From: a virus
Lineage: Duplodnaviria; Heunggongvirae; Uroviricota; Caudoviricetes
Direction: 5' to 3' (one strand)
Length of the DNA stretch: 64,000 nucleotides
IMG/VR virus record: IMGVR_UViG_3300032116_012976
The notes below the pieces were generated by a model. That model worked only from the letters and a program-made list of their open reading frames with translations. It did no database searches and had not been told where the DNA came from. The translations under genes were made by a program, and so were the position numbers. Below, in pieces: positions 36,711-50,300 of this stretch; positions within the stretch are counted from its first letter, which is position 1, and every line of letters starts with the position of its first letter.

Positions 36711-36723
36711 ATTCCGTTACTTA

Positions 36724-37200: not shown

Positions 37201-37223
37201 CTTTCAAAAATATTTATTGATAG

Positions 37224-37300: not shown

Positions 37301-37306
37301 ATTTGC

Positions 37307-37341
37307 AAAAAAAAAAACAGTAGGACTGGCCTACTGTTTTT
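37307..37341 (-). terminator. rho-independent terminator (bidirectional shape)
   Basis: acagtagg-actgg-cctactgt hairpin flanked by A11 and T5. On the minus strand it is followed by a long T-run. Confidence 0.8.
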
Positions 37342-37371
37342 ATAACTTGTGTCAGACAATCTGATCATGCG

Positions 37372-37671: not shown

Positions 37672-37690
37672 AATAATCTCCTTTTTGTAT

Positions 37691-38464: not shown

Positions 38465-38502
38465 ACAGTGTATTTAAAAGTCTGTGCAAGCTACATTAAA
38501 TT

Positions 38503-38579
38503 TGGTGCCCCAGAGGAGACTCGAACTCCTAAAATTTGGCTTCTAAGACCAACACGTATACCAATTCCGTCACCGGGGC
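38503..38579 (-). tRNA. tRNA with Leu anticodon TAG but class-I architecture, 77 nt
   Basis: GCCCCGG TG ACGG AATTGGTAT ACGT G TTGGT CTTAGAA GCCAA ATTTT AGGAG TTCGAGT CTCCT CTGGGGC A CCA. Confidence 0.7.
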
Positions 38580-38590
38580 TTAAATACATC

Positions 38591-38794
38591 ATGCAAACCA
38601 AACAAGACTCCATCAAAAAAATAGAGCGTTTGCTTGCAATGGAAACATTGGGCAAAACGTTTGTGACCAAACAACAACAGTTGGCCTACGAGCGCGGATA
38701 TCTAACAGGCTTGCTGGCTGCTATGGCCTACAACGACAATTCAGTCGAGCATGTGGTGAATCAACGCATCAAACATCTTACACCTAAAATCTAA
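38591..38794 (+). CDS. possible 67-aa ORF on the opposite strand within the tRNA array
   Basis: MQTKQDSIKKIERLLAMETLGK... Internal Met of ORF 38333..38794, whose upstream part overlaps a tRNA. No obvious RBS. Confidence 0.3.
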   Translation: MQTKQDSIKKIERLLAMETLGKTFVTKQQQLAYERGYLTGLLAAMAYNDNSVEHVVNQRIKHLTPKI

Positions 38795-38795
38795 C

Positions 38796-38871
<76 letters not shown>

Positions 38872-38876
38872 ATGAA

Positions 38877-38951
38877 TGGTGGGTGATGAGAGGATCGAAC
38901 TCCCGACAAACTGCGTGTAAGGCAGCGACTCTACCGCTGAGCTAATCACCC
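38877..38951 (-). tRNA. tRNA-Val(TAC)
   Basis: Acceptor gggtgat/atcaccc, anticodon loop CTTACAC, CCA encoded. Confidence 0.8.
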
Positions 38952-38956
38952 GTATA

Positions 38957-39047
38957 TGGTGGAAGTGGTGAGATTCGAACTCACGGACCCCTTTCGGAGC
39001 CGGCAGTTTTCAAGACTGCTGCAATCAACCAACTCTGCCACACTTCC
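38957..39047 (-). tRNA. tRNA-Ser(TGA), class II
   Basis: 91 nt, acceptor ggaagtg/cacttcc, anticodon loop CTTGAAA, long variable arm, CCA encoded. Confidence 0.8.
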
Positions 39048-39241
39048 TAAAAAATTAAAAAAGATACTGCTTTGCGTTTAAAGGTACTGAACATCCTTTC
39101 GGGTAGCTCACATCCTTCCTGGCACATGGTTCGACTGTGACTAGCAGTCTGGAACTTAATCCCAGCGGCACCTGGATAACGTTAAGGTCCCTAGCAGTTG
39201 GGCCCATAGTCAATGAGTTTTTCACACATCTTTTCTAAACT
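39048..39241 (-). other. unassigned 194-nt spacer in the tRNA array (possible small RNA)
   Basis: No ORF. Contains the direct repeat ggtactgaacatcc / ggtagctcacatcc and a duplicated ctagcagt. The minus strand ends in a T-rich run before tRNA-Ser. Confidence 0.25.
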
Positions 39242-39317
39242 TGGAGTAGGTGACAGGACTCGAACCTGCATTATACGGATTTGCAATCCGGCGCCTAGCC
39301 ATTCGGCACACACCTAC
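39242..39317 (-). tRNA. tRNA-Cys(GCA)
   Basis: Anticodon loop TTGCAAA, discriminator U73 as expected for Cys, CCA encoded. Confidence 0.8.
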
Positions 39318-39323
39318 ATCTAT

Positions 39324-39400
39324 TGGTCGGAGTACGAGGGTTCGAACCTCGGACCTCCTGGTCCCAAACCAGGCGCACTACCAGGCTGTGCTATACTCCG
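39324..39400 (-). tRNA. tRNA-Pro(TGG)
   Basis: Acceptor cggagta/tactccg, anticodon loop TTTGGGA, CCA encoded. Confidence 0.8.
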
Positions 39401-39406
39401 TGTATT

Positions 39407-39625
39407 TTATTTTACTTTGGGTTCTTGACTTTTGTCAAGTTCATGGGGTTCAGCAAATCTTGTGCCGTGGCCCAGATTCCAACTGTCTGCTGTGAAAATT
39501 TTTACAGGCTTCCAGTAACGACTTATGATGTTGTTGACAGCAACAGCCGCCGCCACAATCACTACAAATCCTATTGCTGTCAAAATACTACCAGCTAAGA
39601 ATACAGCCGCTTGATCCATGTCCAT
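39407..39625 (-). CDS. small membrane protein (72 aa) inside the tRNA array
   Basis: One clear hydrophobic helix AAVFLAGSILTAIGFVVIVAAAVAV. Confidence 0.5.
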   Translation of the reverse strand: MDMDQAAVFLAGSILTAIGFVVIVAAAVAVNNIISRYWKPVKIFTADSWNLGHGTRFAEPHELDKSQEPKVK

Positions 39626-39638
39626 TGTTTGTTCCTTG

Positions 39639-39712
39639 TGGAGCAGGGTAGGGGAATCGAACCCCTCGCTTTAGCTTGGAAGGCTAAGGTATTACCACTA
39701 TACGAACCCTGC
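39639..39712 (-). tRNA. tRNA-Gly(TCC)
   Basis: Acceptor gcagggt/accctgc, anticodon loop CTTCCAA, CCA encoded. Confidence 0.8.
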
Positions 39713-39760
39713 GTTAAAATACTTATTATACAACACTCAGACACTGTTGTAAAGATCATT

Positions 39761-39835
39761 TGGTTGCCATGGACAGTTTCGAAATGTCGACCTATCGCTT
39801 ATCAAGCGATTGCTCTTCCTCTGAGCTACACGGCA
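39761..39835 (-). tRNA. tRNA-Ile(GAT)
   Basis: Anticodon stem atcgc/gcgat, loop TTGATAA, CCA encoded. Confidence 0.75.
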
Positions 39836-39841
39836 AAAACT

Positions 39842-39915
39842 TGGCACGGGTACTAGGGCTCGAACCTAGAATGACAGAGTCAAAGTCTGTAGTGTTACCA
39901 TTACACTATACCCGA
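39842..39915 (-). tRNA. tRNA-Gln(TTG)
   Basis: Anticodon loop CTTTGAC, unpaired U1-U72 and G73 (Gln-like identity features), CCA encoded. Confidence 0.75.
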
Positions 39916-39927
39916 ACAAAAACTATT

Positions 39928-40002
39928 TGGTGGATGTAAGTAGAGTCGAACTACCACTTGACTCCGTATGAAGGAGGCGCACTACCATTATGCTATACAT
40001 CC
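39928..40002 (-). tRNA. tRNA-Met or Ile2 (CAT)
   Basis: GGATGTA...CCTCC TTCATAC GGAGT... Full cloverleaf. Met versus lysidine-Ile cannot be decided by eye. Confidence 0.7.
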
Positions 40003-40006
40003 ATGT

Positions 40007-40098
40007 TGGTACCCCCACCGGGAGTCGAACCCAGATGAACCAATTATCTGTTGCTTACGGGATATAAATCCGCCGTTTTACCATTAAACTATAGGGGC
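40007..40098 (-). tRNA. 92-nt tRNA with a 22-nt variable region; best-fit anticodon TAT (identity undetermined)
   Basis: GCCCCTA TA GTTT AATGGTA AAAC G GCGGA TTTATAT CCCGT AAGCAACAGATAATTGGTTCAT CTGGG TTCGACT CCCGG TGGGGGT A CCA. The A31-C39 pair is a mismatch. Confidence 0.55.
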
Positions 40099-40103
40099 AT
40101 GTC

Positions 40104-40178
40104 TGGGGTGTCGTATGAGAATCGAACTCATGACAGCGGAATCACAACCCGCGGTTTTGCCACTAAACTAACGTCACC
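40104..40178 (-). tRNA. tRNA-His(GTG)
   Basis: Anticodon loop TTGTGAT, C73 and an encoded G-1 (His hallmarks), CCA encoded. Confidence 0.8.
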
Positions 40179-40267
40179 ATATAGGAACACACTCAGGCGT
40201 AGTAGTTCGTTAGCCCACTAAGATACACGGCTACCACCCGTGTCATTAGTTGAATGTGTTTTTATAT
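40179..40267 (-). ncRNA. clamp-stem element filling the His-Lys tRNA spacer (89 nt)
   Basis: Arms atataggaacacactc (40179..40194) and gaatgtgtttttatat (40252..40267) pair around a ~57-nt insert with an internal hairpin acacgg/ccgtgt. Confidence 0.5.
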
Positions 40268-40341
40268 GGTAGGGGCGCCGGGATTCGAACCCGAAATTGG
40301 CAGATTAAAAGTCTGCTGTGATACCGTTTCACCACACCCCC
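40267..40341 (-). tRNA. tRNA-Lys(TTT)
   Basis: Anticodon stem gcaga/tctgc, loop CTTTTAA, CCA encoded. Confidence 0.8.
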
Positions 40342-40402
40342 GGTATCTTGTCACTCTTGTCACTATTCATGACAGACTCTCCTTTTTAAAATAAGTATTT
40401 GA

Positions 40403-41527
40403 ATGAACAAATATTGTCCAAAACCATTTGTTAGTATTCATATGTATACTGATAAAGATCTCAATCCAACTGTTAGGCCTTGTTGCAATTACAAACCTAT
40501 CAAGCAGTACGCAACGATTAATGATTATTTGCAATCATCTGAACTAGCGTCTCTTCAGCAACATTTGCTTACAAAAGAATCATTGCCAGATGGATGCAAG
40601 GCATGCAAAGTAGACGAAGATAATAACTTGCCTAGTATCCGAAACAAGTATATTAAAGTGTTTGAGCATGAAACCAAAACTAAAATTGTTGACTTGGAAA
40701 TTTTCCCTGGCAACGCATGTAATCTCAGTTGCTTGTCGTGCAATCCTTCTCATAGTACCAAATCAGGTCAGGAATATGCCAAACTTGGATGGATTAAACA
40801 ATCAATAGTGATCAATCACGAAGATCATGCACTTGAAGTTATTAAACAGTTGCCAGACCTTAAATCAATAGGTTTTATTGGCGGCGAATTTTTTGTAACC
40901 AAACACAATATTGAATTGCTCGATGCGGTTATTGAAAAAAATCTTAAAACACGAATTATTACCAATGCCACTCAACTAACCAAAAAACATCTTGAGCGGT
41001 TACAAAAAATATCTGACCTTGATGTGATGGTTAGTGTAGACGGTACTGGGCCAACATTTGAATTTTTACGCTATCCGGCACAATGGTCAGTTGTGCAATC
41101 AAACATTGTTGCACTACAACAGGCATTGCCCGGAGCAAAGATACATTTGTCGGCAGTGTTGCAATTTTTAAATTTGCAAAATATCATTGAACTGTTTGAA
41201 TACGCCAATGTCCGTCGACTGCCATTTAATGTGATCCCTTTATCTTATCCTGTTTGGCTACAGTCAGAAGTGCTTACCACTCTCGAACGTCAGCAGTTGA
41301 TTGCAGTTATACAAAAACAACTAACAGTTGCAAAACTTACCAAAACACAAAAACAGTTAATGACTGATACATGTAGTATGCTAGAAACAATACAGCACTC
41401 ACCTGCTCAACGAGAACAGTTTGTGTCTCGAACAAGCCAGCTGATTCGACTGCGCAACATCACACAACACACAATCAACTCAGTGTTTGGTGTGCTAGAA
41501 AATTTAGCGCAAGAAGTTATACAATAG
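40403..41527 (+). CDS. radical SAM enzyme (type B paralog) embedded in the tRNA array
   Basis: YCPKPFVSI...RPCC, CNLSCLSCN, IGGEFFV. Confidence 0.8.
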   Translation: MNKYCPKPFVSIHMYTDKDLNPTVRPCCNYKPIKQYATINDYLQSSELASLQQHLLTKESLPDGCKACKVDEDNNLPSIRNKYIKVFEHETKTKIVDLEIFPGNACNLSCLSCNPSHSTKSGQEYAKLGWIKQSIVINHEDHALEVIKQLPDLKSIGFIGGEFFVTKHNIELLDAVIEKNLKTRIITNATQLTKKHLERLQKISDLDVMVSVDGTGPTFEFLRYPAQWSVVQSNIVALQQALPGAKIHLSAVLQFLNLQNIIELFEYANVRRLPFNVIPLSYPVWLQSEVLTTLERQQLIAVIQKQLTVAKLTKTQKQLMTDTCSMLETIQHSPAQREQFVSRTSQLIRLRNITQHTINSVFGVLENLAQEVIQ

Positions 41528-41567
41528 CCAGGGACCTAACTCGTCAAGGGAGAGTATGGCTATGTGT

Positions 41568-41645
41568 TGGTACCACCTGAGAGATTCGAACTCCCCGCCC
41601 CTGCGTTCGTAGCACAGTGCTCTAATCCAAATGAGCTAAGGTGGT
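41568..41645 (-). tRNA. tRNA-Arg(ACG)
   Basis: Acceptor accacct/aggtggt, anticodon loop CTACGAA, CCA encoded. Confidence 0.75.
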
Positions 41646-41653
41646 GTATTGAA

Positions 41654-41853
41654 TTTGAGAGTAGTAGCATCACTGTTATTGCTACCATTGACCCGTGTAA
41701 TAAAGCCGGCCGGGAGGGTGATACGTCACTTGGAATACTTAACACACAGATTGATTACTTAGTTGTGTACGGAATCACGCCGCCCGTGCTTTACACTAGG
41801 TTGACCTTCGAAGAATCTTCCTAGCGTGTCTTTCTCTTGCTGACACTCTCAAA
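41654..41853 (-). ncRNA. 200-nt clamped spacer element between tRNA-Arg(ACG) and tRNA-Thr(TGT)
   Basis: Arms tttgagagt (41654..41662) and actctcaaa (41845..41853) pair. No ORF. Internal hairpins include gtagca/tgctac and ctagg/cctag. Confidence 0.4.
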
Positions 41854-41856
41854 ACT

Positions 41857-41930
41857 TGGTGCCCCACGACAGAATCGAACTGCCATCACAGGATTACAAA
41901 ACCAGTGTACTACCATTGTACTAGTAGGGC
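41857..41930 (-). tRNA. tRNA-Thr(TGT)
   Basis: GCCCTAC TA GTAC AATGGTA GTAC A CTGGT TTTGTAA TCCTG... Two U-U mismatches in the anticodon stem. CCA encoded. Confidence 0.65.
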
Positions 41931-41936
41931 GAATTG

Positions 41937-42026
41937 TGGTGGAAGACTAGGGAGTCGAACCCTATGACCCTATTACTAGAATCTACAGATTAGCAATCTG
42001 CTGCATTACCGTCCTGCCCGTCTTCC
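41937..42026 (-). tRNA. tRNA-Ser(GCT), class II
   Basis: 90 nt, acceptor ggaagac/gtcttcc, anticodon loop TTGCTAA, CCA encoded. Confidence 0.8.
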
Positions 42027-42031
42027 TGACT

Positions 42032-42107
42032 TGGCTCCCCAGCGTGGGATCGAACCACGGACACCTTGATTAACAGTCAAGTGCAACTACCGCTGTGCTA
42101 CTAGGGA
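42032..42107 (-). tRNA. tRNA-Asn(GTT)
   Basis: Anticodon stem cttga/tcaag, loop CTGTTAA, G73, CCA encoded. Confidence 0.8.
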
Positions 42108-42147
42108 ATAATCTACTTAGTAGGCACTCGAGCCTACTACAAAAATA

Positions 42148-42240
42148 TGGTGGAGCAACTTGGAGTCGAACCAAGAATGTTTACCACGAGGGGACGGATT
42201 TACAGTCCGCCGATGCACACGCCATAGCATCAATTGCTCC
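42148..42240 (-). tRNA. tRNA-Tyr(GTA), class II
   Basis: 93 nt, acceptor ggagcaa/ttgctcc, D stem GATG/CATC, anticodon loop CTGTAAA, 18-nt variable region, CCA encoded. Confidence 0.75.
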
Positions 42241-42245
42241 ATATT

Positions 42246-42320
42246 TGGTGGACCGGCGGGGGATCGAACCCCGACTAAAGGCTTGCAAAGCCCCTGTGCT
42301 CCCATTATCACTACCAGCCC
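42246..42320 (-). tRNA. tRNA-Ala(TGC)
   Basis: Anticodon loop TTTGCAA. The acceptor stem carries the G3:U70 Ala identity pair. CCA encoded. Confidence 0.8.
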
Positions 42321-42326
42321 AAATTT

Positions 42327-42400
42327 TGGCATCCCGGGAGGGACTCGAACCCCCACGAACGGTTTTGGAGACCGTCATGCTGCCATTACACCACCGAGAC
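42327..42400 (-). tRNA. tRNA-Trp(CCA)
   Basis: Anticodon stem acggt/accgt, loop CTCCAAA, G73, CCA encoded. Confidence 0.8.
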
Positions 42401-42408
42401 ATAATTTT

Positions 42409-42431
42409 AACACACTCTTGCGAATGTGTGT
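42409..42431 (-). ncRNA. GCAA-capped hairpin, minimal member of the clamp-stem family, 8 nt 5' of tRNA-Trp
   Basis: Minus strand acacattc-GCAA-gagtgtgt: 8 bp with one G:U. The same position is a C:A mismatch on the plus strand. Confidence 0.6.
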
Positions 42432-42432
42432 A

Positions 42433-42482
42433 TTAAAACATTCTAAACTACTTAGGCTGCCTGTTTGTAAAGAATGTTTTAA
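42433..42482 (-). ncRNA. 12-bp perfect clamp hairpin with 26-nt loop
   Basis: ttaaaacattct (42433..42444) pairs with agaatgttttaa (42471..42482). Confidence 0.5.
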
Positions 42483-42582
42483 TACGCTCGGATTTTTTTA
42501 TGTACAAGAACATAAGCCATCCCCGAGGCCGCCCATTTGTAGTTTAGAGTGATACAGGCTCGCGTTGCCGTTGCACTAAATG

Positions 42583-42610
42583 AAAAAACCCAGGGTTTTT
42601 ACGCCTGGGT
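42583..42610 (-). terminator. rho-independent terminator inside the ORF-free block
   Basis: acccagg...cctgggt hairpin followed, on the minus strand, by TTTTTT. Confidence 0.65.
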
Positions 42611-42818
42611 CCTTGGGTAAGATACGGTTGTATACTACTTAGGACCCTCTGCCTCCTGGAATGCTATTCATGCGACCATAGGCGTGTGACCAAACTGGTG
42701 TCTGGGCAAACTTGGGTAGCAGTGAACAATATTGTGTTTTCATCATAAGTCCTATTGTACAGTATTTACCTTTTGAGGTCAACCACTGTGTTAAAGTTAT
42801 TTAGCCTTTCGGCTGAAT

Positions 42819-42893
42819 TGGTTGCGGGGGAAGGAATCGAACCTCCGTCTCCCAGGTTATGAGCCTGGTGGTCTACCGCTGACGTACCCCGCG
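42819..42893 (-). tRNA. initiator tRNA-fMet(CAT)
   Basis: C1-A72 mismatch at the acceptor end (bacterial initiator hallmark), anticodon loop CTCATAA with a G-C-rich stem base, CCA encoded. Confidence 0.75.
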
Positions 42894-42904
42894 ATTGAAT
42901 TATT

Positions 42905-42986
42905 TATATAGAAACACACTCTATGCTTGGGGAACAATTCATTGAATTGAGCAACCACCAACGGGTACGGAGTGCGTTTGTATATA
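42905..42986 (-). ncRNA. clamp-stem element 11 nt 5' of tRNA-fMet (82 nt)
   Basis: Arms tatatagaaacacactc (42905..42921) and gagtgcgtttgtatata (42970..42986), 15 of 17 positions paired. Confidence 0.5.
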
Positions 42987-42993
42987 AAGTGGC

Positions 42994-44010
42994 GGACTGA
43001 GAATACATCCTAACCCAGTAACACCTCGGACATTATTACAAACCTTGCGAGTCTGCTTTCTTCCGATTTCCACTGCAACCATATTGCTATGTATCACAGT
43101 CTGTTACCAGTATCGCCGTTTTTAAAGACAGGCAGTAGTCTTGTCATCACATGCTACTCTACACCATCTATCCCGTTGACCTTTAGAGCCATTCACTGTC
43201 GCTAAACAGTTACGAAACTTCCAGTATAAACAGATTTCACCTTGCGAGTTACGTCTGACTGTATTGCCTTGCGGCTACAGCATTAGATACTTTTCACACA
43301 TGACCGAGTCAGTCTTTGCTTTTATGTTAGATAGTGGTTTTGAAGCCACAGCCTATTCCTTAACAGGGAATTGCTCTACGATGAGCTATATCAACCTACT
43401 GCGATGTGCTGACTCAGTTGCTTCATACTCTTTTGGAATACAAAATACAACACACCACGTTCCTTTTGTCTTGCGAACTACTCAGACGTCTTTTGCGATC
43501 AGTGTCGGGTCTCGGCTTTCGCGTACCTCCACCAACCACTCAAACTGCATACGAGCCCTTGGGTGCAACCCCTCGGACCGATACGCTACCCTTTCTCATA
43601 CCAATTAACTGGGCTGGTTTTGTATAGAAGTCAGCACCACCTGTTACTTTTCTGCAACTCCGGTTACCCTTGCGGGCCGGTAAGTTACAGCTCTTTCCTA
43701 TACTCCCAGCGTCATTGTTACAACCACCGGTCTTATCAGTGATCGGATCCTCACGGACCTGAGCAGGCTTGTTTACATGAACCATTGCTGGCGGACTTAT
43801 GTAGGCATACATCCTTTGGCTGGGTCACCCCAGTTATTCTTCGTACAGCTGGGCGAACCATACTGCACAGGACAATAAACTGCCCTATGTATCTATTGTA
43901 AGACAAACGTCTTTTGTTGTCAAACAGTTTTGGATAAATTTGTTGTTTATCTATCCAAAATAGTCTGTAACAGTTTTCTGCAGTCGTGTTACAGTGGGCA
44001 AATAAGTACC
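42994..44010 (-). ncRNA. candidate large structured ncRNA (~1 kb), class unknown (GOLLD/ROOL-like context)
   Basis: No credible ORF in an otherwise gene-dense window. Five CGCAAG (GCAA tetraloop) and two GTGA-capped hairpins on the minus strand, plus many local stems. Flanked by tRNAs. Confidence 0.4.
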
Positions 44011-44014
44011 CCAC

Positions 44015-44986
44015 ATGATCACTGAAATCTTAACCTATCACCACAGTCTCGACTGGAACATTGAACAATTCGTTGATAGCACATGTCTAGCAAACATTGT
44101 TCAGCCACACTGGCCAATGGTAACTTCTTCCAAAGGAGGATTGATACCAACAAATAAACCCAGCCGAGACTTTTTTGAGCTCAATAAAAAACGAGGACGT
44201 CCTACTGAACTTAGGAACAGTACCATTGACGCCTTGGTCAGTCTTGTGGCAACAAAATTGCATCTCAACGGATTTGTTACGAATGTGGTAGCAGAATGCA
44301 GTGGAAGCATGCATGCCTTGTACACTGCATCCATGGTGAGCTTGCAACACCAATTACCAGTGATTGTTTTTTGTGCTGATAATTTAGTTGATGACGAACT
44401 TCACATGTGGCGATTTGCCAGTATGGGTGCATTGGATCAATCCTCAGGAAGAGCATTTGACTCAACCAGTACTGGATTTCGAATGGGTAGAGGCATGGCT
44501 GCAATGTTGATAAAACATCCAAGTGTAAAATTCAACATGAGTGCATTTGCCACAATCAGCAATTATATCTTTCGTACCAACCCCACACTCATAGCCAATC
44601 CAGGTGATGCGCACCAATTGGCCAGAGATATTTCTGGCATCAATTTTGACACCATTGATTTTTGGAATGCACATGCAACAGGCACTCCAGTGGGAGATCA
44701 ATTTGAGTACAATGTTTTTAATTCTTTAGTTCACAAAGACATACCTATTGTCAGCTACAAAAGCCGCATAGGGCACTGTATCTCAGCCAGCGGCGCCATT
44801 GAAATGTGCATGAGTTTTGACGATTACCGTGCAAAAACCCTAAGACCCAATGTGTTAGCTGGTGATCTCATAGTCAAAGATTCAAGGATCATCGTAGATG
44901 CTGTGCCGTTTCCGGGCAAACGCATACTCAAGGCCAATTTTGGATTTGGCGGCAAAAACAGTTTTTGCCAAATTGACATTGAATAG
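44015..44986 (+). CDS. beta-ketoacyl-ACP synthase I/II-like (short, 323 aa)
   Basis: Cys-His-His triad context: AECSGSMHALY, NAHATGTPVGD, KSRIGHCISASGAIE. C-terminal FGFGGKNS. N-terminal region is shorter than FabB/FabF. No obvious RBS. Confidence 0.75.
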   Translation: MITEILTYHHSLDWNIEQFVDSTCLANIVQPHWPMVTSSKGGLIPTNKPSRDFFELNKKRGRPTELRNSTIDALVSLVATKLHLNGFVTNVVAECSGSMHALYTASMVSLQHQLPVIVFCADNLVDDELHMWRFASMGALDQSSGRAFDSTSTGFRMGRGMAAMLIKHPSVKFNMSAFATISNYIFRTNPTLIANPGDAHQLARDISGINFDTIDFWNAHATGTPVGDQFEYNVFNSLVHKDIPIVSYKSRIGHCISASGAIEMCMSFDDYRAKTLRPNVLAGDLIVKDSRIIVDAVPFPGKRILKANFGFGGKNSFCQIDIE

Positions 44987-44990
44987 ATTC

Positions 44991-45140
44991 TATAGTCAAG
45001 CACCGAGAGATGCTCAATTTATGCGTCCTCCGCTAAGAGTGCAATAGCCGATAGCAGTTATATTAGGATCCGTTCCCGGCCGGTTGGACCCGAATAGCGT
45101 AAGCGTCCTTACACGATACCTTTATCGGTGCTTGACTATA
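44991..45140. ncRNA. 150-nt element closed by a perfect 16-bp clamp, directly after the KAS stop codon
   Basis: tatagtcaagcaccga (44991..45006) pairs with tcggtgcttgactata (45125..45140). The interior has gc-GTAA-gc, ccggccgg and gcg/cgc stems. Confidence 0.45.
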
Positions 45141-45173
45141 AAAACTAAAAGTTCGGATTTGAAAATCAAATCC
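45141..45173 (-). terminator. possible terminator of the upstream minus-strand RNA
   Basis: ggatttga-aaa-tcaaatcc hairpin (45155..45173) followed, on the minus strand, by T-rich gaacTTTTagTTTTTat. Confidence 0.45.
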
Positions 45174-45590
45174 TCCCACTGCTAACTACTGCTTCCCAAT
45201 TTATCGTCCATCGGCACCCGTGGTAGGGCTTGCGATGCTCATCGGCCCTGAGTTCTGGCTCAGGTGATCCTTGGGATAGGACTGCTGGGCCTTGTCCTGC
45301 CCAGCATCAGGAAAATTAGTTGCTCTGCATCCCCCGGCGGTAATTGTAGTGCATCATCTCTTGGGTTGCCCCGCAATTCTCACACACCTTCCACCCGCTT
45401 CCCGACAGGGACCGCTATCGTGTTGCTAACGGCCTTTCGGTAAGAAGACTACCACCCTTGAGAGTCACCTCACTTCTTATCCTGCGGGTCACAGTATCCG
45501 CTAACCAAGCGGAACGTCGGGGAGAAGCCACGGTTGCAGGACCTAGTGCTCTTGCGAGGAAGTGTCCAGGCGATGTGGCTTCAAACTTGA
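45174..45590 (-). ncRNA. candidate structured ncRNA (~420 nt), class unknown
   Basis: ORF-free. Hairpins cctgag/ctcagg, tgctggg/cccagca, agggc/gccct, tccgc/gcgga. Two more CGCAAG on the minus strand (plus CTTGCG at 45229 and 45551). Confidence 0.35.
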
Positions 45591-45679
45591 GGCATCATGT
45601 GGGATTCGAACCCACGCAAGAAAACCTTGATGATCATTCAAGGTTGAAGCAAACCACACTCCGTTACATCCTATGACGC
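45591..45679 (-). ncRNA. tRNA-like element A (89 nt; canonical acceptor and T arm, non-canonical core, no CCA)
   Basis: GCGTCAT...GTGGG TTCGAAT CCCAC ATGATGC C. The core is an 8-bp hairpin with loop ATGATCA. No D-arm could be folded. Confidence 0.4.
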
Positions 45680-45687
45680 CATAAACT

Positions 45688-45778
45688 TGGTGGACAACAA
45701 TGGGAATCTAACCCACTTCTTCCTCGTATGCTATTACGAAGTTTCATACCAGCCTCAGGTAATTGACACATCATGTCC
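45688..45778 (-). ncRNA. tRNA-like element B (91 nt; degenerate)
   Basis: T-arm GTGGG TTAGATT CCCAT, 5-bp acceptor, CCA encoded. No canonical anticodon arm (7-bp stem CTTCGTA/TACGAGG with a 6-nt loop). Confidence 0.35.
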
Positions 45779-45785
45779 ATAAACT

Positions 45786-45860
45786 TGGCGGTCCCAGGGG
45801 GTAACGATCCCCCTCCTCAGCAGTGACAGTGCTGTGTGCGTCCATGAACACCTTGAGACC
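45786..45860 (-). tRNA. tRNA-Asp(GTC)
   Basis: GGTCTCA AG GTGT TCATGGAC GCAC A CAGCA CTGTCAC TGCTG AGGA GGGGG ATCGTTA CCCCC TGGGACC G CCA. Confidence 0.75.
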
Positions 45861-46063
45861 AAATTAGGATAAGCTACTGGGTTCCACGCCAGCCCTTAAT
45901 TGAGCAGTTACTCTGTCCATCTCATTTATTCAAAGTCTGTGTGCAGTGAGATTCTGCCTATCAGAGTCTGTAAGGGTAGTCTCCATCCTTACGCTTACGG
46001 TCTTCTGCCACCGGATCTCTATCGCTAATCAAACGCTACTTTAACGAAAGTAGTAACGGGATT

Positions 46064-46138
46064 TGGTAGAGCGTAGGGGAATCGAACCCCTCTTACAGGC
46101 GTGAAAGGCTTGTGTCCTAACCGATAGACGAACGCTCC
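46064..46138 (-). tRNA. tRNA-Glu(TTC)
   Basis: G1:U72, T-arm agggg/cccct, anticodon loop CTTTCAC, CCA encoded. Confidence 0.8.
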
Positions 46139-46147
46139 ATAGTTCAC

Positions 46148-46376
46148 TATATGAAAACACATTAGGGAAGTTCTTGACACGCATCACCAACTTGCATCAA
46201 GACCTCATTACAGGCCCAGTAGTTCCGCCGCCTTCCTGGAGTTTGGTGTAGCCTTATCCCTCACGCTCGATGGTGTCTCGCGCTACTCTTAGGCCCTCCT
46301 GCTTCATGGGTATCCGGCTCGAATCAGCCTTTGTTCACCCCTAACGGACTAGGTAACCCTAATGTGTTTACATATA
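46148..46376 (-). ncRNA. clamp-stem element 9 nt 5' of tRNA-Glu (229 nt)
   Basis: Arms tatatgaaaacacattaggg (46148..46167) and ccctaatgtgtttacatata (46357..46376), 19 of 20 paired, enclosing ~190 nt without an ORF. Confidence 0.5.
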
Positions 46377-46473
46377 GTGCCCAGAACTTAATCTGGGGCA
46401 CTATACAAAATTAAATTTTTAACGAACTTCAAAGTAGTTTCGATCAACTGCCTTTGTTTTCTAACTAGTCTCT

Positions 46474-46502
46474 AGTATAGCATCTCCTGCTTTACTGGTC
46501 AA
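46474..46502 (-). promoter_or_regulatory. sigma70-type promoter TTGACC-N17-TATACT (TGn) reading into the tRNA/ncRNA array
   Basis: Minus strand: ttgaccagtaaagcaggagatgcTATACT. Confidence 0.6.
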
Positions 46503-46571
46503 CTTGTTTTGTAAATGCCCCGCCTTGTTGCAGGGTCTTTACAAACTTCGCTGTTTTTCTAACTTGTGTCT

Positions 46572-46600
46572 AGTATAGCACCAATCCAATTATTGGTCTA
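46572..46600 (-). promoter_or_regulatory. tandem second copy of the promoter (TAGACC-N17-TATACT)
   Basis: Minus strand: tagaccaataattggattggtgcTATACT. About 98 nt upstream of the first copy, with shared flank ttttctaact.gt.tctagtatagca. Confidence 0.45.
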
Positions 46601-46607
46601 CTGCCAT

Positions 46608-46637
46608 AAAAAAACCCGCCTACTTGGCGGGTTTTTT
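46608..46637 (-). terminator. rho-independent terminator after the porin gene (bidirectional shape)
   Basis: acccgcc-tactt-ggcgggt flanked by an A-run and a T-run. Confidence 0.85.
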
Positions 46638-46656
46638 GGTTTGTACTACTTCTGTT

Positions 46657-47547
46657 TTAGAACTGTACGACCAACCCGCCTGCTACTTGTTTGACATCAG
46701 TGGCTGCTGAGGTTCCCTCAACTGTACGATACAAAACTTGTGCATAGGTCTTTTTGCTGAAAGCATACTCAGCACCTACGTTGTAACTCTTGATGCCATT
46801 TTCAATGCGACCATAGCTGGCCTTCACTGTGACTGGTCCACCAAGTTTGTGTGCCACGCCGACCAACTGAGCACGGTTGGTGTTGGCAGCAACGCCTTTG
46901 TTGTCGCTTGCGCTGGCAAACACAGTGGTTGCACCAAATTTAGCACGAGCAGCCAACACGTCACTGGTTTCTGCGCCAGCTTCGTAACGAGCATAAGTCA
47001 ACACAGCAGGTCCAACTGCGGCAATCACGGATGCGGCATAAGGATCAGCGGCAGTGCCAACAGCACCAGTGCTACGATCAAAGTTAGCAGAGACATTGCC
47101 AAAGTTCACAGAAGTGAAAGCGGCATTGCTCAAACGCAAACCACGCAGGTTATGCACGTCGGCAGCTGAGCTACCAATCAATGTGCCAAATGGATCATTG
47201 TCGCTGATGGCCAAGAAGTGAGTGTGAACATTGCGACCAAGATCAACGCTACCCATTTTGTGAGCAATACCCACGGTGCTTTGGCGATCGCCAAGTCTAG
47301 TGTCAGTACCAGTGTCTGGGCTGTTGGCTTGGATGCCGGTCTCGTATGTGGCACGAGCTGTTAATCCGCCACCTAAGTTTTCAGTAGCACGAATGCCAAA
47401 GTGACTCAAGTCATTGGCCATGCCTTGCACGGTGGAAGCACCAGTTTTGGTGTTGTCAAGGTAAGTGCCAACACGACCATAGATACCAACTTGTGCGCTT
47501 GCAACACCAGCAACTGCCAGGGTCAACGCAATTAGAACTTTCTTCAT
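46657..47547 (-). CDS. outer-membrane porin (Gram-negative trimeric porin family)
   Basis: Signal peptide MKKVLIALTLAVAGVASAQV, alternating beta-strand pattern, C-terminal ...GGLVVQF with terminal Phe. RBS aaggaaa. Confidence 0.8.
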   Translation of the reverse strand: MKKVLIALTLAVAGVASAQVGIYGRVGTYLDNTKTGASTVQGMANDLSHFGIRATENLGGGLTARATYETGIQANSPDTGTDTRLGDRQSTVGIAHKMGSVDLGRNVHTHFLAISDNDPFGTLIGSSAADVHNLRGLRLSNAAFTSVNFGNVSANFDRSTGAVGTAADPYAASVIAAVGPAVLTYARYEAGAETSDVLAARAKFGATTVFASASDNKGVAANTNRAQLVGVAHKLGGPVTVKASYGRIENGIKSYNVGAEYAFSKKTYAQVLYRTVEGTSAATDVKQVAGGLVVQF

Positions 47548-47595
47548 AAGTAATTTTTCCTTGTTAATGAAATGATCAAATGTCGATCATAGAGT

Positions 47596-47625
47596 ATTAT
47601 ATAGCACAAACACTGAGAATGTCAA
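47596..47625 (-). promoter_or_regulatory. sigma70-type promoter TTGACA-N18-TATAAT for the porin gene
   Basis: Minus strand: ttgacattctcagtgtttgtgctaTATAAT. Confidence 0.55.
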
Positions 47626-47651
47626 AGAAAATGGCTACTTTCGCAGCCATT
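47622..47651 (-). terminator. terminator at the end of the tmRNA coding piece
   Basis: aatggct-gcgaaagt-agccatt hairpin followed, on the minus strand, by ttttcttt. Confidence 0.65.
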
Positions 47652-47813
47652 TTGGTGGTTTCTGTTACGAGGTATTTCCTACCCTAGACGACCTTAAGCG
47701 GCCATCAAGAATTTTTCATCATTTGCAGATAAAAGTTTTGCTTGATTTACGGTCATCGCCTACCGTGCTGTCCACTCTGTTACTCTTTGCCCTGTCGAAT
47801 CTAGGTCAGGCCC
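47630..47813 (-). ncRNA. ssrA: tmRNA coding piece (two-piece / permuted ssrA)
   Basis: Starts GGGCCTGACCTAGATTCGAC (compare the standard GGGGCUGAUUCUGGAUUCGAC). Contains the tag frame. The 3' boundary is approximate. Confidence 0.8.
47694..47726 (-). other. ssrA: tmRNA tag reading frame ANDEKFLMAA*
   Basis: GCA AAT GAT GAA AAA TTC TTG ATG GCC GCT TAA. The ANDE...AA pattern is typical of proteobacterial tags. Confidence 0.8.
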
Positions 47814-48028
47814 ATCATAAAGAAACTTAATCTACGCTTAATGTTGTTAACAACAAGCATAATATTGGAAAAACAATTAATAAAAATTTTGCTAAATTTT
47901 CCATATTACCATAACTCACAGTTTTTTATTTTCTCTTCGTCCAATGTGGTATCACGTGTAAAATAAAATACACCAAACACTAACCAAAATAACAAAAATA
48001 AAACATAACCTATCATTAAACTTCCTTA

Positions 48029-48093
48029 TGGTGGACCTGGGGGGATTCGCACCCCCGTCCAGAACACTTTTCTCTCGGCTTCATACAGCAATA
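48029..48093 (-). ncRNA. ssrA: tmRNA acceptor piece (T-arm + 3' acceptor strand + ACCA)
   Basis: ...GGAC GGGGG TGCGAAT CCCCC CAGGTCC A CCA. Pairs with GGGCCTG of the coding piece, giving G3:U70. The 5' boundary is inferred from the promoter. Confidence 0.75.
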
Positions 48094-48099
48094 ACTCGC

Positions 48100-48128
48100 A
48101 GTATATATTTATTCTTTGGGCTTGTCAA
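48100..48128 (-). promoter_or_regulatory. sigma70-type promoter TTGACA-N17-TATACT for the tmRNA precursor
   Basis: Minus strand: ttgacaagcccaaagaataaataTATACT. Confidence 0.6.
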
Positions 48129-48278
48129 CTGCTTTGGAGATGATGTCATACACTTGTGCGTATGCATCAGTAATTTTGTCTAGTTGTTGTTCCGACACCA
48201 AGTCTGTGTCCTCCAGACTGACCAAGTCTCGGGCTAGATTTTCTTGTAGTTTTTTTATGGGATTGAGCACATACCTAT

Positions 48279-48812
48279 TTATTCATCCCCGCTATCTACT
48301 GGGATCCAGCCCAACTTAAAAAAGTCTTCCTGGATTTCTTCTGTGACATGTCCTTCGGGTACATATCTTTTAACACCGTCAGCATCACCATTGCCCAGTC
48401 CATCGCCTATGCCCGAACAGTACCAATCAATATAGTCACCTTGTTCACGCATGTCGGCAACAATACCCCCGGCATAGCGCCACGAACAACTGTAGGTCTC
48501 TCCCTTTAGCAAAGGCCATACTTCGTTGCGTTGCCAGTCTTGATTGCACAAGGCTGCGTAGATGTTTTGAGCGTAGGTATCGCTGGCCTTGGCTTTGTCG
48601 CAAACCCACTTGGTGCTACGCAAATCATATTCAAGATTGTTTTCTCGCCACCGTTCGTCGGCTTCGCGTTGAGCCTGATGTTCGTTGATCATGCGTTCAA
48701 GATCTAAAGCTCGTTGAACATCTTCGTCAGTGGCAGGATCTCCTCCTTCCGCAATGACATCTTCAATTCTGCATTGACTGTGAAAGGTTCCGCGAGTAGG
48801 ACTTTTGTTCAT
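48279..48812 (-). CDS. hypothetical protein
   Basis: Start moved to MNKSPTRG, because the longer ORF-track version (to 48890) runs through tRNA-Leu(TAA). Confidence 0.55.
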   Translation of the reverse strand: MNKSPTRGTFHSQCRIEDVIAEGGDPATDEDVQRALDLERMINEHQAQREADERWRENNLEYDLRSTKWVCDKAKASDTYAQNIYAALCNQDWQRNEVWPLLKGETYSCSWRYAGGIVADMREQGDYIDWYCSGIGDGLGNGDADGVKRYVPEGHVTEEIQEDFFKLGWIPVDSGDE

Positions 48813-48818
48813 AATGTT

Positions 48819-48904
48819 TGGTACCAGAGACGGGACTCGAACCCGTATGCCCTTGCAAGCGGCAGATTTTAAGTCTGCTGTGTATACCATTCCACCACTC
48901 TGGC
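48819..48904 (-). tRNA. tRNA-Leu(TAA), canonical class II
   Basis: 86 nt: GCCAGAG TG GTGG AATGGTATA...GCAGA CTTAAAA TCTGC + 15-nt variable arm + ACGGG TTCGAGT CCCGT CTCTGGT A CCA. Confidence 0.8.
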
Positions 48905-48922
48905 TTTGCGTTATTTAATACA

Positions 48923-48997
48923 TGGTCCGGCGTAGAGGAATCGAACCTCTATAATGACTTTAGAAGAATCATGTCCTATCCGTTGAACGAACGCCAG
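48923..48997 (-). tRNA. tRNA-Arg(TCT)
   Basis: CTGGCGT TC GTTC AACGGATA GGAC A TGATT CTTCTAA AGTCA TTAT AGAGG TTCGATT CCTCT ACGCCGG A CCA. Confidence 0.8.
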
Positions 48998-49002
48998 ATG
49001 TT

Positions 49003-49077
49003 TGGTGGGCCAACTTGGAATTGAACCAAGACTCGACCGATTATGAGTCGGTTGCTTTACCATTAAGCTATTGGCCC
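49003..49077 (-). tRNA. tRNA-Met or Ile2 (CAT)
   Basis: GGGCCAA TA GCTT AATGGTA AAGC A ACCGA CTCATAA TCGGT CGAGT CTTGG TTCAATT CCAAG TTGGCCC A CCA. Confidence 0.75.
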
Positions 49078-49100
49078 TGTGCTACATTGTAGCAGGAAAA

Positions 49101-49481
49101 CTATTTAGTGTCAACTGTTCCGTCGGCCAGGTGGTCATGTTTGATTTCTTTTACAGGATGCCCTAAAATGCTGGCAACAGAATTTTTGTAAGCAATACGT
49201 TTGTTGTTATGATCTCTAATGGCAATGGCTCGGCGACCAATCTCCTGAAGGCTCAACATTTGCTCCACGCCTGATTTGAGCTGCCATTCTAGATCCCAGA
49301 TAGCATGATGGATGTCGGTCATTGCTTGAATGTCCTCATCTAGTTCTGCGCTTTGTGGTAGTTGTCGAAACTTGTCCTCGTACCAATCAAGTTCAACTTG
49401 GTTGGCGCCTTTGGTTCGTGCATGTTTTACTCTGGCAATGCAGAGTCGATCAATTAGTTCTAATACTGGAAGAAATTCCAT
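49101..49481 (-). CDS. hypothetical protein
   Basis: 126-aa ORF downstream of the promoter at 49511. Confidence 0.55.
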   Translation of the reverse strand: MEFLPVLELIDRLCIARVKHARTKGANQVELDWYEDKFRQLPQSAELDEDIQAMTDIHHAIWDLEWQLKSGVEQMLSLQEIGRRAIAIRDHNNKRIAYKNSVASILGHPVKEIKHDHLADGTVDTK

Positions 49482-49510
49482 AGCATACCCTTTCTATTTT
49501 GTATAGAATT

Positions 49511-49539
49511 ATTATACAAAAATGCTAAGTGTTTGTCAA
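49511..49539 (-). promoter_or_regulatory. sigma70-type promoter TTGACA-N17-TATAAT
   Basis: Minus strand: ttgacaaacacttagcatttttgTATAAT. Overlaps the 3' end of the desaturase ORF. Confidence 0.55.
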
Positions 49540-50300
49540 CGGTCTTTGTCAGTTCTTACCAATTGAATTAAGCGGTATCCAGGATCAAATTCCCACCATT
49601 TTTTGCCAAACTGTGGATCTGCGGCAGCGGCGTGATGATTGTTGTGCCAGCCCTCTCCACCAGTCAAATATCCTACCAGCAGGTTATTTGAACTTTGATC
49701 ACGTGTGTCAAAATTTCTATATCCTGATGGACTGTGAGTGAGAGAGTTGGTCAGTGAACTGGCATGTTGCAACAATAGTGACGGAACCAAATAAGCATAC
49801 ACTACTGCATAAGGATCTATCATGTAAACTGCCACCCCGACCAAGATAGTGTACAACCAATGATTGTAGTACATGTGCATGTGAAATTTGGATTTCACAA
49901 TCTCTGGAGCATAACTTAATTTTGGAGTAGCAGGTGTGAGTCTAAATTGCACGGCTAGATAACCGTATACCGCAGGTGAGTGCGGATCATCTTTTGTGTC
50001 AGAGTGTCTATGATGCGCTCGATGTATTGCTACCCAATACAACATTGGTAAAGTTGTGCCAGGAATAGCAATCAATGTTCCTAGATATTCAAACCATTTT
50101 GGTGCTTGAAAAGAACGATGGGTGATCAGCCGATGAACTGTTACAGTTCCGACTACCATCTTGATATAGTAGACCAACAGACATATTGCCCACTGCCATG
50201 CTTCACTGTTGAAGATAAAGTAGACCAGGATCACATGTAGACAGGCACTGTATGCAATCATTTCGTTGTGCGAAGGCACAAACCAGTTTTTCTTTTTCAT
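49536..50300 (-). CDS. membrane fatty-acid desaturase (third copy)
   Basis: HRLITHRSF, HRAHHRHSDTKDDPHSP, GEGWHNNHHAA. Confidence 0.85.
   Translation of the reverse strand: MKKKNWFVPSHNEMIAYSACLHVILVYFIFNSEAWQWAICLLVYYIKMVVGTVTVHRLITHRSFQAPKWFEYLGTLIAIPGTTLPMLYWVAIHRAHHRHSDTKDDPHSPAVYGYLAVQFRLTPATPKLSYAPEIVKSKFHMHMYYNHWLYTILVGVAVYMIDPYAVVYAYLVPSLLLQHASSLTNSLTHSPSGYRNFDTRDQSSNNLLVGYLTGGEGWHNNHHAAAADPQFGKKWWEFDPGYRLIQLVRTDKDR

Follow-up and report, generated by a model that had tools for sequence, protein, structure and literature searches.

Conserved structured RNA cassettes, two of them tRNA-like, within a phage tRNA array

The window, that is, the whole stretch of DNA analyzed here, comprises 64,000 nucleotides (nt) of a Caudoviricetes virus (IMG/VR record IMGVR_UViG_3300032116_012976), and its minus strand carries an array of transfer RNAs (tRNAs) that spans about 36.4-49.1 kb. 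Within the array lies the block investigated in this work (44987-45780), bordered on one side by a KAS gene, an open reading frame (ORF; 44015-44986) with a Pfam ketoacyl-synthase match that ends just ahead of the block, and on the other by tRNA-Asp(GUC) (45786-45860, minus strand; called by ARAGORN, 36.2 bits in Rfam), the last canonical tRNA before the block. As judged by comparison with related arrays, the block is a chain of five independent RNA cassettes (B, A, E, C, and D), six counting cassette F beyond tRNA-Asp, each of which is its own conserved family. All six are on the minus strand, and their order, with spacers in nt, is Glu-1-[F]-2-Asp-7-[B]-8-[A]-11-[E]-9-[C]-31-[D]. The first-pass annotation, made from the letters of the sequence alone, had described a single structured block; five independent cassettes were found instead, and its hairpin-containing stretch of "~420 nt", treated there as one piece, proved to be two conserved elements, E and C.

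Homologues of the cassettes were collected with iterated nhmmer over all fetched loci, which are phage and metagenome contigs with labels such as L004 and L019 (L001 is Bordetella phage PHB04, MF663786), and were mapped by combining the nhmmer modules with ARAGORN tRNA calls. The nhmmer searches gave 33 homologues of C, 10 of B, 9 of E, 7 each of D and F, and 5 of A, the last count dating from before the later scans. Pattern scans for C, unit A, and unit B were built from a match in PHB04 and from the two units themselves; the first unit A pattern caught mostly 5' ends of tRNA-Pro and was replaced by one taken from the 3' half. These scans identified about 30 IMG/VR contigs with the ~157-nt cassette C and brought the distinct copies of unit B to 12 and those of unit A to 17, from viral and metagenome contigs. 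KAS gene neighbors, which could have served as a route to syntenic relatives, yielded none among viral contigs.

In these arrays, the cassettes occurred singly and in varied orders, and outside the window their spacers to neighboring tRNAs were usually 1-20 nt. The arrangements included Ala-7-[A]-11-Pro in L067, Ser-6-[B]-8-Ile in L104, Arg-8-[A]-11-[B] in L103, Ser-8-[E]-10-Cys in L063, both Val-5-[C]-17-Ile and Glu-1-[D] in L004, and [F]-2-Asp in five loci. The first homologues of C to be found had an upstream tRNA end at a constant offset, with the next tRNA starting about 160 nt later. The spacers were short and A/U-rich (AAGUUU...), and a common leader, CCATAAACTTGG or AAGUUUAU(G), stood ahead of both A and B at 45679-45693 and 45777-45791. 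Units A and B also had a T-arm repeat in common. The two were adjacent in reversed order (A then B, 11 nt apart) in L103 (2689-2874) and L140 (2878-3063), which hints that they tend to travel together.

Units A and B were found without E or C in other arrays (as in the Ala-Pro and Ser-Ile spacers above), and C, D, and E were found without A or B. Because the modules occur alone or reordered between tRNAs, a single large non-coding RNA ending in a tRNA-like structure, one of the origins first proposed for the two units, was ruled out. Under a related reading, the whole block (A or B with E, C, and D) would form a single ornate RNA of large size whose 5' end resembles a tRNA, comparable to a GOLLD RNA with its embedded tRNA. 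A GOLLD RNA is indeed encoded inside the same array at 42994-43458 (204 bits in Rfam), 1.5 kb from the block, with an Rfam tRNA inside it (43325-43395, 50.6 bits), and in PHB04 a tRNA-like element precedes cassette C by about 300 nt in a 1.35-kb gap. The solitary and reordered modules of other phages speak against this reading, as do the absence of matches to the Rfam GOLLD and ROOL models and the fact that no long-range pairing between modules was needed or seen, and we hold it to be highly improbable.

The Rfam 15 covariance models were run in a scan at gathering thresholds and in a local scan at E ≤ 10 over 1.4 kb (44800-46200). No Rfam 15 family was found for A-E in either scan, except for a sub-threshold tRNA match to A; other matches, such as those of sR34 and of plastid untranslated-region families, were attributed to chance. 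The ORFs that overlap the block had no Pfam or PHROG match. When positions 44000-47000 were compared by blastn with a set of 50,697 phage records, the sole match outside tRNAs was one of 95 nt at 81% identity, in an unannotated gap of PHB04 near its transfer-messenger RNA (tmRNA) and tRNAs. This gap (2479-3830) extends for 1.35 kb from an AraC-like gene to the tmRNA and contains cassette C at 2966-3124. The cassette C pattern was also run over 185,579 species-representative bacterial and archaeal genomes, where its 7 matches were all chance, with no similarity beyond the pattern itself; C thus appears restricted to phages at this sensitivity. To evaluate the structures of C, A, and B, the fraction of alignment cells paired under each model was compared with the fraction obtained when the pairing partners were slid (by 1-3 columns for C). 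The G-U pairs in C, D, and E are compatible with the minus strand only.

Cassette C (45155-45311, ~157 nt; 33 loci including PHB04) begins with a 5' H-type pseudoknot, in which 45309-45311 pairs with 45296-45298 and 45299-45305 with 45284-45290. This is followed by a three-way junction with two covarying arms, closed by the invariant helix UCCCAA/UUGGGA (45271-45276 with 45194-45199), whose invariance means that it carries no covariation information. The joining strands GGAUCA, GCCGAUGAG, and GACGAUAAA are also invariant, and the 3' part consists of a pentaloop hairpin and then a terminal hairpin. On 22 distinct sequences, 99.1% of the cells were paired under the model against 20-41% for the slid versions; 21 of the 37 pairs had changed on both sides, and 0 of 500 shuffles reached any of five measures. 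In other arrays, tRNAs directly adjoin C. The invariant junction strands suggest, on this structural model, a specific binding or catalytic pocket. Several candidate identities were rejected. A hammerhead ribozyme has a three-way junction as C does, but C lacks the CUGAUGA/GAAA core and the single unpaired H at the cleavage site, and no Rfam ribozyme matched. Likenesses to domain IV of the signal recognition particle RNA (GGAAGCAG), to P4 of RNase P, and to the 3' end of 16S rRNA (GGAUCACCU) had no Rfam or two-strand motif support and were put down to coincidence. The 10-mer CCUGAUGCUGG, common to the B loop and the 5' end of C, becomes CCUGAGUCCAUG in divergent copies of C and was not retained as a shared motif.

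The tRNA-like element of PHB04 upstream of C (3437-3521) lacks CCA; it combines an acceptor stem of 6 bp and a hairpin of 7 bp with a UUAGAUU T loop like that of unit B. The B covariance model gave it a non-significant 14.4 bits (E = 0.9), which does not establish it as a member of family B. Against the tRNA-Sec model it scored 21.7 bits, below the threshold of 47, and this was the only tRNA-Sec match.

At its 3' side, C ends in a hairpin with a T-rich tail that the first-pass annotation had also recorded on the minus strand: GGAUUUGAUUUUCAAAUCC followed by the U-rich CGAACUUUUAGUUUUU, at about 45143-45174. The hairpin proper (45155-45174) combines an A/U-rich stem with the U-rich tail and has too few G-C pairs for a terminator scan to call it. 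Its counterpart in most homologues is a short stem with a GNRA cap, and a tRNA comes next. The U-rich spacer between C and D (45141-45154, minus strand; the CGAACUUUUAGUUUUU region) has a similar counterpart between C and D in L027 and L030, and its appearance is that of a weak terminator tail or of an A/U-rich, single-stranded site for processing.

Cassette D, the "clamp RNA" (44991-45140, ~150 nt), has a multi-branch core closed by a perfect 16-bp inverted repeat that pairs 44991-45006 with 45125-45140. This clamp, reported earlier as closing a 150-nt element after the KAS stop codon, is present as described, with KAS ending at 44986. The extended arms (44984-45006 and 45125-45147) are 91% complementary, and for the 149-nt element the folding energy is -55.8 kcal/mol (z = -5.0), a value that 0 of 200 shuffles reached. 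Homologues were found in L027, L030, L004, L019, L033, and L028, and 22 of the 36 predicted pairs were compensatory, including most of the long closing stem. The loops AAGGUAUCG, CUAUUCGG, and CCUGAUAUAACUGC are conserved. Elsewhere, D begins at most 1 nt from the CCA end of a tRNA.

Cassette E (45321-45582, ~260 nt) combines a 5' hairpin module (45524-45582) with a core of about 200 nt (45321-45523). The hairpin has an 8-bp stem, GAAGCCAC/GUGGCUUC, capped by a GCAA loop (z = -3.3), and the core has the conserved strands ACUGUGACCCGCAGGAUGAGAAGU, GGGAAGCGGGUGGAAGGU, and ACUAUAAUUACCGCC. Homologues of E were found in L063, L004, L089, L036, L033, and L052, and of the 5' hairpin alone in L061 and L010; 14 of 40 predicted pairs were compensatory. 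Two CGCAAG motifs had been pointed out in this part of the block, and both are present on the minus strand (read as CTTGCG on the plus strand, 45230-45235 and 45552-45557), where each is a GCAA tetraloop closed by a C-G pair. Cassette F (45861-46063, ~200 nt) fills the entire spacer between tRNA-Glu and tRNA-Asp and has no Rfam match. Its homologues in L019, L036, L104, L067, and L089 are 82-86% identical, and F always stands 2-4 nt upstream of tRNA-Asp (of tRNA-Tyr in L089). C, D, and E are predicted from these comparisons to be stable structured RNAs.

The two units of about 90 nt with a shared leader that had originally drawn attention to the block are both present at the positions first given for them (45591-45679 and 45688-45778). 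Unit A (45588-45679) is a 92-nt tRNA-like RNA with 17 distinct homologues of 88-92 nt. Over these 17 sequences its 7-bp acceptor stem was 99% paired, and its T arm, GUGGG-UUCGAAU-CCCAC, was invariant. The first linker is likewise invariant (AGGAUGUAAC in the window copy; family form AGGAUGUAA(C/U)), and so is the second, UUUCUUGC, except in L134 (UUUCAUGC). The first hairpin has 6 bp and a loop of 4-5 nt that varies in length and sequence (UGGUU, GGGUU, CGG-U), and the second has 8 bp with loops that are unrelated between members (AUGAUCA in the window). Under the model, 99.3% of the cells were paired against 40-57% for the slid versions, and 5 of 26 pairs were compensatory. CCA ends 16 of the 17 copies; the window copy alone differs, with UCA after its C73, and the discriminator base of the family is A, C, or G. 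What A has of a tRNA is the 7-bp acceptor stem, a 5-bp T stem with a UUCGAAU-type loop, and the CCA end (UCA in the window copy); the 17-copy alignment contains neither a D stem nor an anticodon arm of the usual kind (5-bp stem, 7-nt loop, U33, conserved anticodon). The first description of A, with a good acceptor stem and T arm, an 8-bp hairpin looped by AUGAUCA, C73, and no CCA, was therefore accurate for the window copy. The Rfam tRNA model (RF00005) gave A 20.0 bits (E = 0.4) against a threshold of 29 and aligned to the acceptor and T arm only, and ARAGORN at default settings made no call. Three further candidates were set aside. A low-threshold ARAGORN "tmRNAp" call is spurious, as it fuses tRNA-Asp with unit A. 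A His-like G-1:C73 pair in the C73 subfamily is inconsistent, with L144 combining G-1 with A73. For a small ORF that extends from B into A (ATGGAC...TAA), the ATG lacks conservation, and the substitutions compensate for one another in the RNA stems.

Unit B (45688-45778) is a 91-nt class-II-like tRNA-like RNA with 12 distinct homologues, all 12 of them exactly 91 nt long and ending in GUCC-A-CCA. The acceptor stem is of 4 bp (GGAC/GUCC), 4-5 bp at most, with a 3-nt bulge before it, so that the "good acceptor stem" first ascribed to both units does not apply to B, while the T arm does; its loop is UUAGAUU, with A rather than C at position 56. A D-like stem of 3 bp with a tetraloop is UGA/UCA in some members and UAC/GUG in others, and an anticodon-like stem of 4 bp (UACC/GGUA, UGCC/GGCA, GACC/GGUC, or GCAC/GUGC) carries a 7-nt loop. 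The earlier statement that neither unit has a foldable D or anticodon arm thus held for A but not for B, which has these covarying 3-bp and 4-bp hairpins. The 7-nt loop, UGAUGCU or UGAGGCU, has G at the U33 position and a variable center (GAU, GAG, GCU). The variable-arm-like hairpin has 7 bp and the loop AUAGCA, in a near-invariant loop region, AAUAGCAU / AAUAGCAUA. Under the model, 99.3% of the cells were paired against 43-59% for the slid versions, and 9 of the 24 pairs had changed on both sides. A covariance model of B scored true members at 116 bits and anything else at 19.5 bits or less; its weak matches, where identifiable, were mostly ordinary tRNAs, several of them tRNA-Ser or tRNA-Tyr (14-20 bits). 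No Rfam match of the tRNA or tRNA-Sec family was found for B at E ≤ 10, and ARAGORN at default settings gave no call. B looks like a remodeled class II tRNA by these sequence features, and class II tRNAs are recognized by SerRS without reading of the anticodon.

Taken singly, neither unit folded better than chance (z = -1.9 for A and -1.2 for B against shuffled sequences), and it is therefore the comparative data that carry their reality. This bears on the possibility, raised at the outset, that A and B are decaying tRNA pseudogenes and that the rest of the block is spacer folding by chance. Such a reading would account for the z values, the missing CCA of the window copy of A, the sub-threshold 20 bits of A and the lack of any Rfam tRNA match for B, and the silence of ARAGORN at default settings. 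Decay does not accord with the fixed length of B, the invariant linkers, the CCA ends (16 of 17 in A and 12 of 12 in B, all of them as ACCA), or the compensatory changes in arms that tRNAs do not have. Nor does it accord with the persistence in A of a G·U pair at 3:70 while the neighboring 4:69 turns over through all four pairs, or with the strong covariation of C, D, and E. The comparative data already largely refute the pseudogene reading, which we consider extremely unlikely.

A second reading regards A, B, or both as genuine decoding tRNAs of odd architecture (class II, Sec-like, or allo-tRNA-like), serving a special codon or stop suppression. Both units have CCA ends and T arms, B has five arms as class II tRNAs do, and at an 80% threshold ARAGORN called A a tRNA-Leu(CAA) with the loop CUUCAAC, which resembles a Sec/opal anticodon loop. 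Covariation contradicts this relaxed call, the only one by which either unit was folded as an ordinary tRNA in the suggested ARAGORN and Rfam checks. Column 20 of the A alignment pairs with column 32 as A-U in 7 sequences and G-C in 10, with 0 mismatches; the second U of CUUCAAC covaries with column 20 and hence lies in a stem, so both the tRNA-Leu(CAA) and the Sec/opal-type loop were rejected, and the loop that remains changes in length. In B, the lack of U33 (G stands at position 33) together with a central triplet that differs between members means that the 7-nt loop is not an anticodon loop. A tRNA-Sec or allo-tRNA would require a 13-bp acceptor/T stack (8/5, 9/4, 8/4, or 9/3), a D arm with 6 bp and a 4-nt loop, and UCA or another defined anticodon; A has 7/5 with no D stem, and B has 4/6 with a D-like stem of 3 bp. 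The array, moreover, already supplies tRNAs for all 20 amino acids. We regard a decoding role as very unlikely. As a structural description, "tRNA mimics", the remaining proposal for the two units, is apt: both families retain a T arm, a CCA end, and spacing of the tRNA type, and there is no conserved anticodon loop.

Unit A was also examined at the acceptor stem. Position 3:70 was G·U in 16 of the 17 copies and A-U in one, and the neighboring 4:69 was U-A in 10, A-U in 5, and C-G and G-C in one each. A reference set of 760 unique ARAGORN tRNAs from all fetched loci was used to gauge how specific this pair is: G3·U70 was present in 22 of 22 tRNA-Ala and in 10 of 738 other tRNAs, some of these 10 being register artefacts. 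Among the 30 tRNAs of the window it occurs in tRNA-Ala only, and it is found in the phage tmRNA as well. G3·U70 is the main alanine identity element. Hou and Schimmel in 1988, and Francklyn and Schimmel in 1989, reportedly found that alanyl-tRNA synthetase (AlaRS) charges acceptor minihelices without an anticodon. Since A carries the G3·U70 that AlaRS reads without an anticodon, it is predicted to accept alanine, and unit A would be, by its sequence, an alanine-accepting tRNA mimic akin in principle to the tRNA-like domain of tmRNA.

From the observed families, structures, modular arrangement, and identity marks, we infer how these RNAs would be transcribed, processed, charged, and used. In the account that we favor and consider reasonably probable, 44987-45780 would be the downstream end of a polycistronic minus-strand tRNA-array transcript with five mobile non-tRNA RNA cassettes, and A and B would be non-decoding tRNA derivatives acting as chargeable mimics or decoys. 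A promoter candidate (46502-46474) and a terminator (46609-46637), the former supported by a consensus scan only, may frame a Glu-F-Asp-B-A-E-C-D unit. The tRNA-processing machinery of the host would release the cassettes. By analogy with bacterial tRNA operons, a cut in the A/U-rich spacer after the upstream CCA, followed by exonuclease trimming, would form one end, and an RNase P cut at the 5' end of the next tRNA or tRNA-like unit would form the other. A and B would keep the "top half" of a tRNA (the acceptor/T-arm stack, discriminator, and CCA), with the D and anticodon regions rebuilt into family-specific hairpins. As stable CCA-ended mimics, they may then present an acceptor/T-arm face to tRNA-binding proteins without decoding, and their partners could be a synthetase, EF-Tu or SmpB-type factors, or host nucleases that target tRNAs in defense. 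Engaging tRNA-binding proteins without decoding is, on sequence grounds, the most likely role of the two units.

The main rival to this account is that A and B are processing punctuation only, that is, RNase P and 3'-end signals that excise E, C, and D. Processing punctuated by tRNAs is well established, as in mitochondrial transcripts and MALAT1/mascRNA. Units A and B keep the acceptor/T-arm part that processing enzymes see, and in the window they stand between tRNA-Asp and E. Elsewhere, however, they lie between two ordinary tRNAs (L067, L104), where punctuation would be needless, and punctuation has no need for invariant linkers, the conserved variable-arm loop AAUAGCAUA, G3·U70, or an encoded CCA. 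We judge this explanation unlikely, though less so than the other alternatives.

Several observations weigh against the preferred account of A and B as chargeable, non-decoding mimics. The 12-bp acceptor/T stack normally gauged by RNase P, EF-Tu, and the CCA-adding enzyme is longer than that of B, whose acceptor has 4-5 bp with a bulge before it. Members of the families are fairly closely related (mean column identity 92% in B), and part of their conservation is shared ancestry. For alanine charging of A, the L135/L145 lineage has A3-U70, the discriminator varies, and the 2:71 pair is C-G, unlike the G-C of tRNA-Ala; the window copy, ending in UCA rather than CCA, may be impaired. Conservation of the internal hairpins argues for a function and not for which one. 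The expression, ends, and charging of these RNAs are sequence-based predictions, and the hairpin and U-run after C could stop transcription before D.

A bolder version can be put forward tentatively, as possible but doubtful. In it, unit A would represent a new class of anticodon-less, alanine-charged phage tRNA mimic, a free-standing tmRNA-like tRNA domain, and B its class II counterpart. They may deliver or sequester aminoacyl groups, or act as decoys for SmpB, EF-Tu, anticodon nucleases, or other tRNA-targeting defenses. The array would be a general RNA island that expresses many structured RNAs through tRNA processing, and among them C may bind a ligand or be catalytic.

The surrounding array was characterized as well. 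ARAGORN identified 30 tRNAs covering all 20 amino acids, and a CCA is encoded in all 30, as it is in 726 of the 760 unique tRNAs (96%) of related arrays. A permuted two-piece tmRNA was called by ARAGORN at 47603-48121 and confirmed by Rfam. The tRNA-Asp next to the block has an atypical T loop (AUCGUUA); it was missed by the whole-window search at gathering threshold and was above threshold in the local search. Two entries are long tRNAs on the minus strand: an ARAGORN tRNA-Ile(UAU) of 92 nt (40007-40098), with a long extra region, a Leu-like acceptor GCCCCUA, and A73 (z = +0.9 against shuffles), and a tRNA-Tyr of 93 nt (42148-42240). The 556 nt upstream of the GOLLD match (43459-44014, minus strand), with 82-86% conservation in L027, L134, and L129, probably make up the variable 5' half of GOLLD, and in that case the minus-strand ORFs 43540-43812 and 43751-44014, which lack a Pfam match, are likely spurious. 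Homologues in the fetched contigs were also found for the gaps 39048-39241, 41646-41856 (20 loci), 42401-42818, 46139-46656, and 48122-48818, and the array probably holds more unrecognized RNA cassettes.

Protein-coding genes are interspersed with these RNAs. A porin gene (46657-47547, minus strand; Pfam Porin_4, E = 2.8e-25) lies between the tmRNA and tRNA-Glu and is followed by a strong bidirectional terminator (46609-46637), which separates it from the sigma-70-like promoter candidate on the minus strand (46474-46502; TTGACC-17-TATACT with extended TG, 10 of 12 matches in the consensus scan). Further genes for lipid, redox, and other auxiliary functions in and around the array (33739-50300) encode a rubrerythrin (35939-36376), an RNase H-like protein (36724-37200), a CMAS-like methyltransferase (37691-38464), a radical-SAM protein (40403-41527), a fatty-acid desaturase (49536-50300), two TauD dioxygenases, and an SPFH protein. 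The array region forms the accessory "RNA island" of a large phage, and both the tmRNA type and the single cultivated relative, a Bordetella phage, point to a betaproteobacterium as its probable host.

Arrays of tRNAs in phages are commonly interpreted as devices for codon supply or anti-defense that contain tRNAs only. In the array described here, GOLLD and a tmRNA are joined by at least six further families of conserved structured RNA, which appear to use tRNA spacing, and probably tRNA processing, for their expression. Units A and B keep features used by anticodon-independent synthetases and have lost those for decoding, which leads to a testable hypothesis of alanylation. The presence of cassette C in the cultivated phage PHB04 makes experiments feasible. 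The families would also provide new entries for RNA family databases and would allow better annotation of the "empty" gaps in phage tRNA islands.

No description of these RNA families was found in the literature. Relative to Rfam 15 and the literature, the families, their modular spread, and their identity features are new, with the IMG/VR candidate list (PMC10690425) lying outside this comparison. That IMG/VR survey (Fremin et al. 2023, PMC10690425) predicts thousands of unnamed structured RNAs, including tRNA-like ones, and gives no functions or identity features like those described here. The GOLLD and ROOL RNAs of phages and prophages are structured, have no known function, and are often found near tRNA islands (PMC12286853). 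In contrast to these RNAs of 580-800 nt or more, C, D, and E are of 150-260 nt and have other architectures, and no model of either family matched in 44800-46200 at E ≤ 10.

Among tRNAs, B most resembles class II, with its five arms, long variable-arm-like hairpin, G1-G2-A3, A73-CCA, and a length of 91 nt like that of phage tRNA-Ser(UGA). It differs in an acceptor stem of 4 bp against 7-9, a D stem of 3 bp with a 4-nt loop, an anticodon-like stem of 4 bp, and the lack of U33. For unit A, the likeness is to the tRNA-like domain of tmRNA and to alanine minihelices: its acceptor has G3·U70, its T arm is canonical, it lacks both D stem and anticodon, and it ends in CCA. The tmRNA of the window bears the same G3·U70 mark. 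One invariant linker of A, UAGGAUGUAACGG (45662-45674, minus strand), is also loosely like the D-loop analogue of the window tmRNA, UAGAUUCGACAGG (47790-47805, minus strand), a weak lead to SmpB-type recognition. Unlike tmRNA, A has no mRNA-like domain, no tag frame or resume codon, and no pseudoknots, and in place of helix 2 it has a pair of short hairpins. None of the Rfam tmRNA models matches A, and its discriminator is A, C, or G, whereas that of tmRNA and the alanine minihelix is always A.

Non-tRNA stable RNAs have been known in phage tRNA clusters since T4, and the closest analogue of the system described here is the T4 pair rnaC and rnaD, whose functions, as the species 1 and 2 RNAs, are still unknown (PMC9697503). 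The present families bear on this 50-year-old puzzle. The T4 RNAs, rnaD (119 nt) and rnaC (139 nt), are stable non-tRNA RNAs, encoded on the same strand after the last tRNA of their cluster (tRNA-Arg) with spacers of 1 and 6 nt. By its 3' end, rnaC has a canonical T arm, CCGGG-UUCGAAU-CCCGG, and long hairpins stand in place of the tRNA core. There is no homology between the two systems at the level of sequence or covariance model: rnaC reaches 17.2 bits (E = 0.15) under the B model, and blastn gave no T4-type match for A-E. Where T4 has two such RNAs, five or six are chained here, and unit A adds G3·U70 and an encoded CCA.

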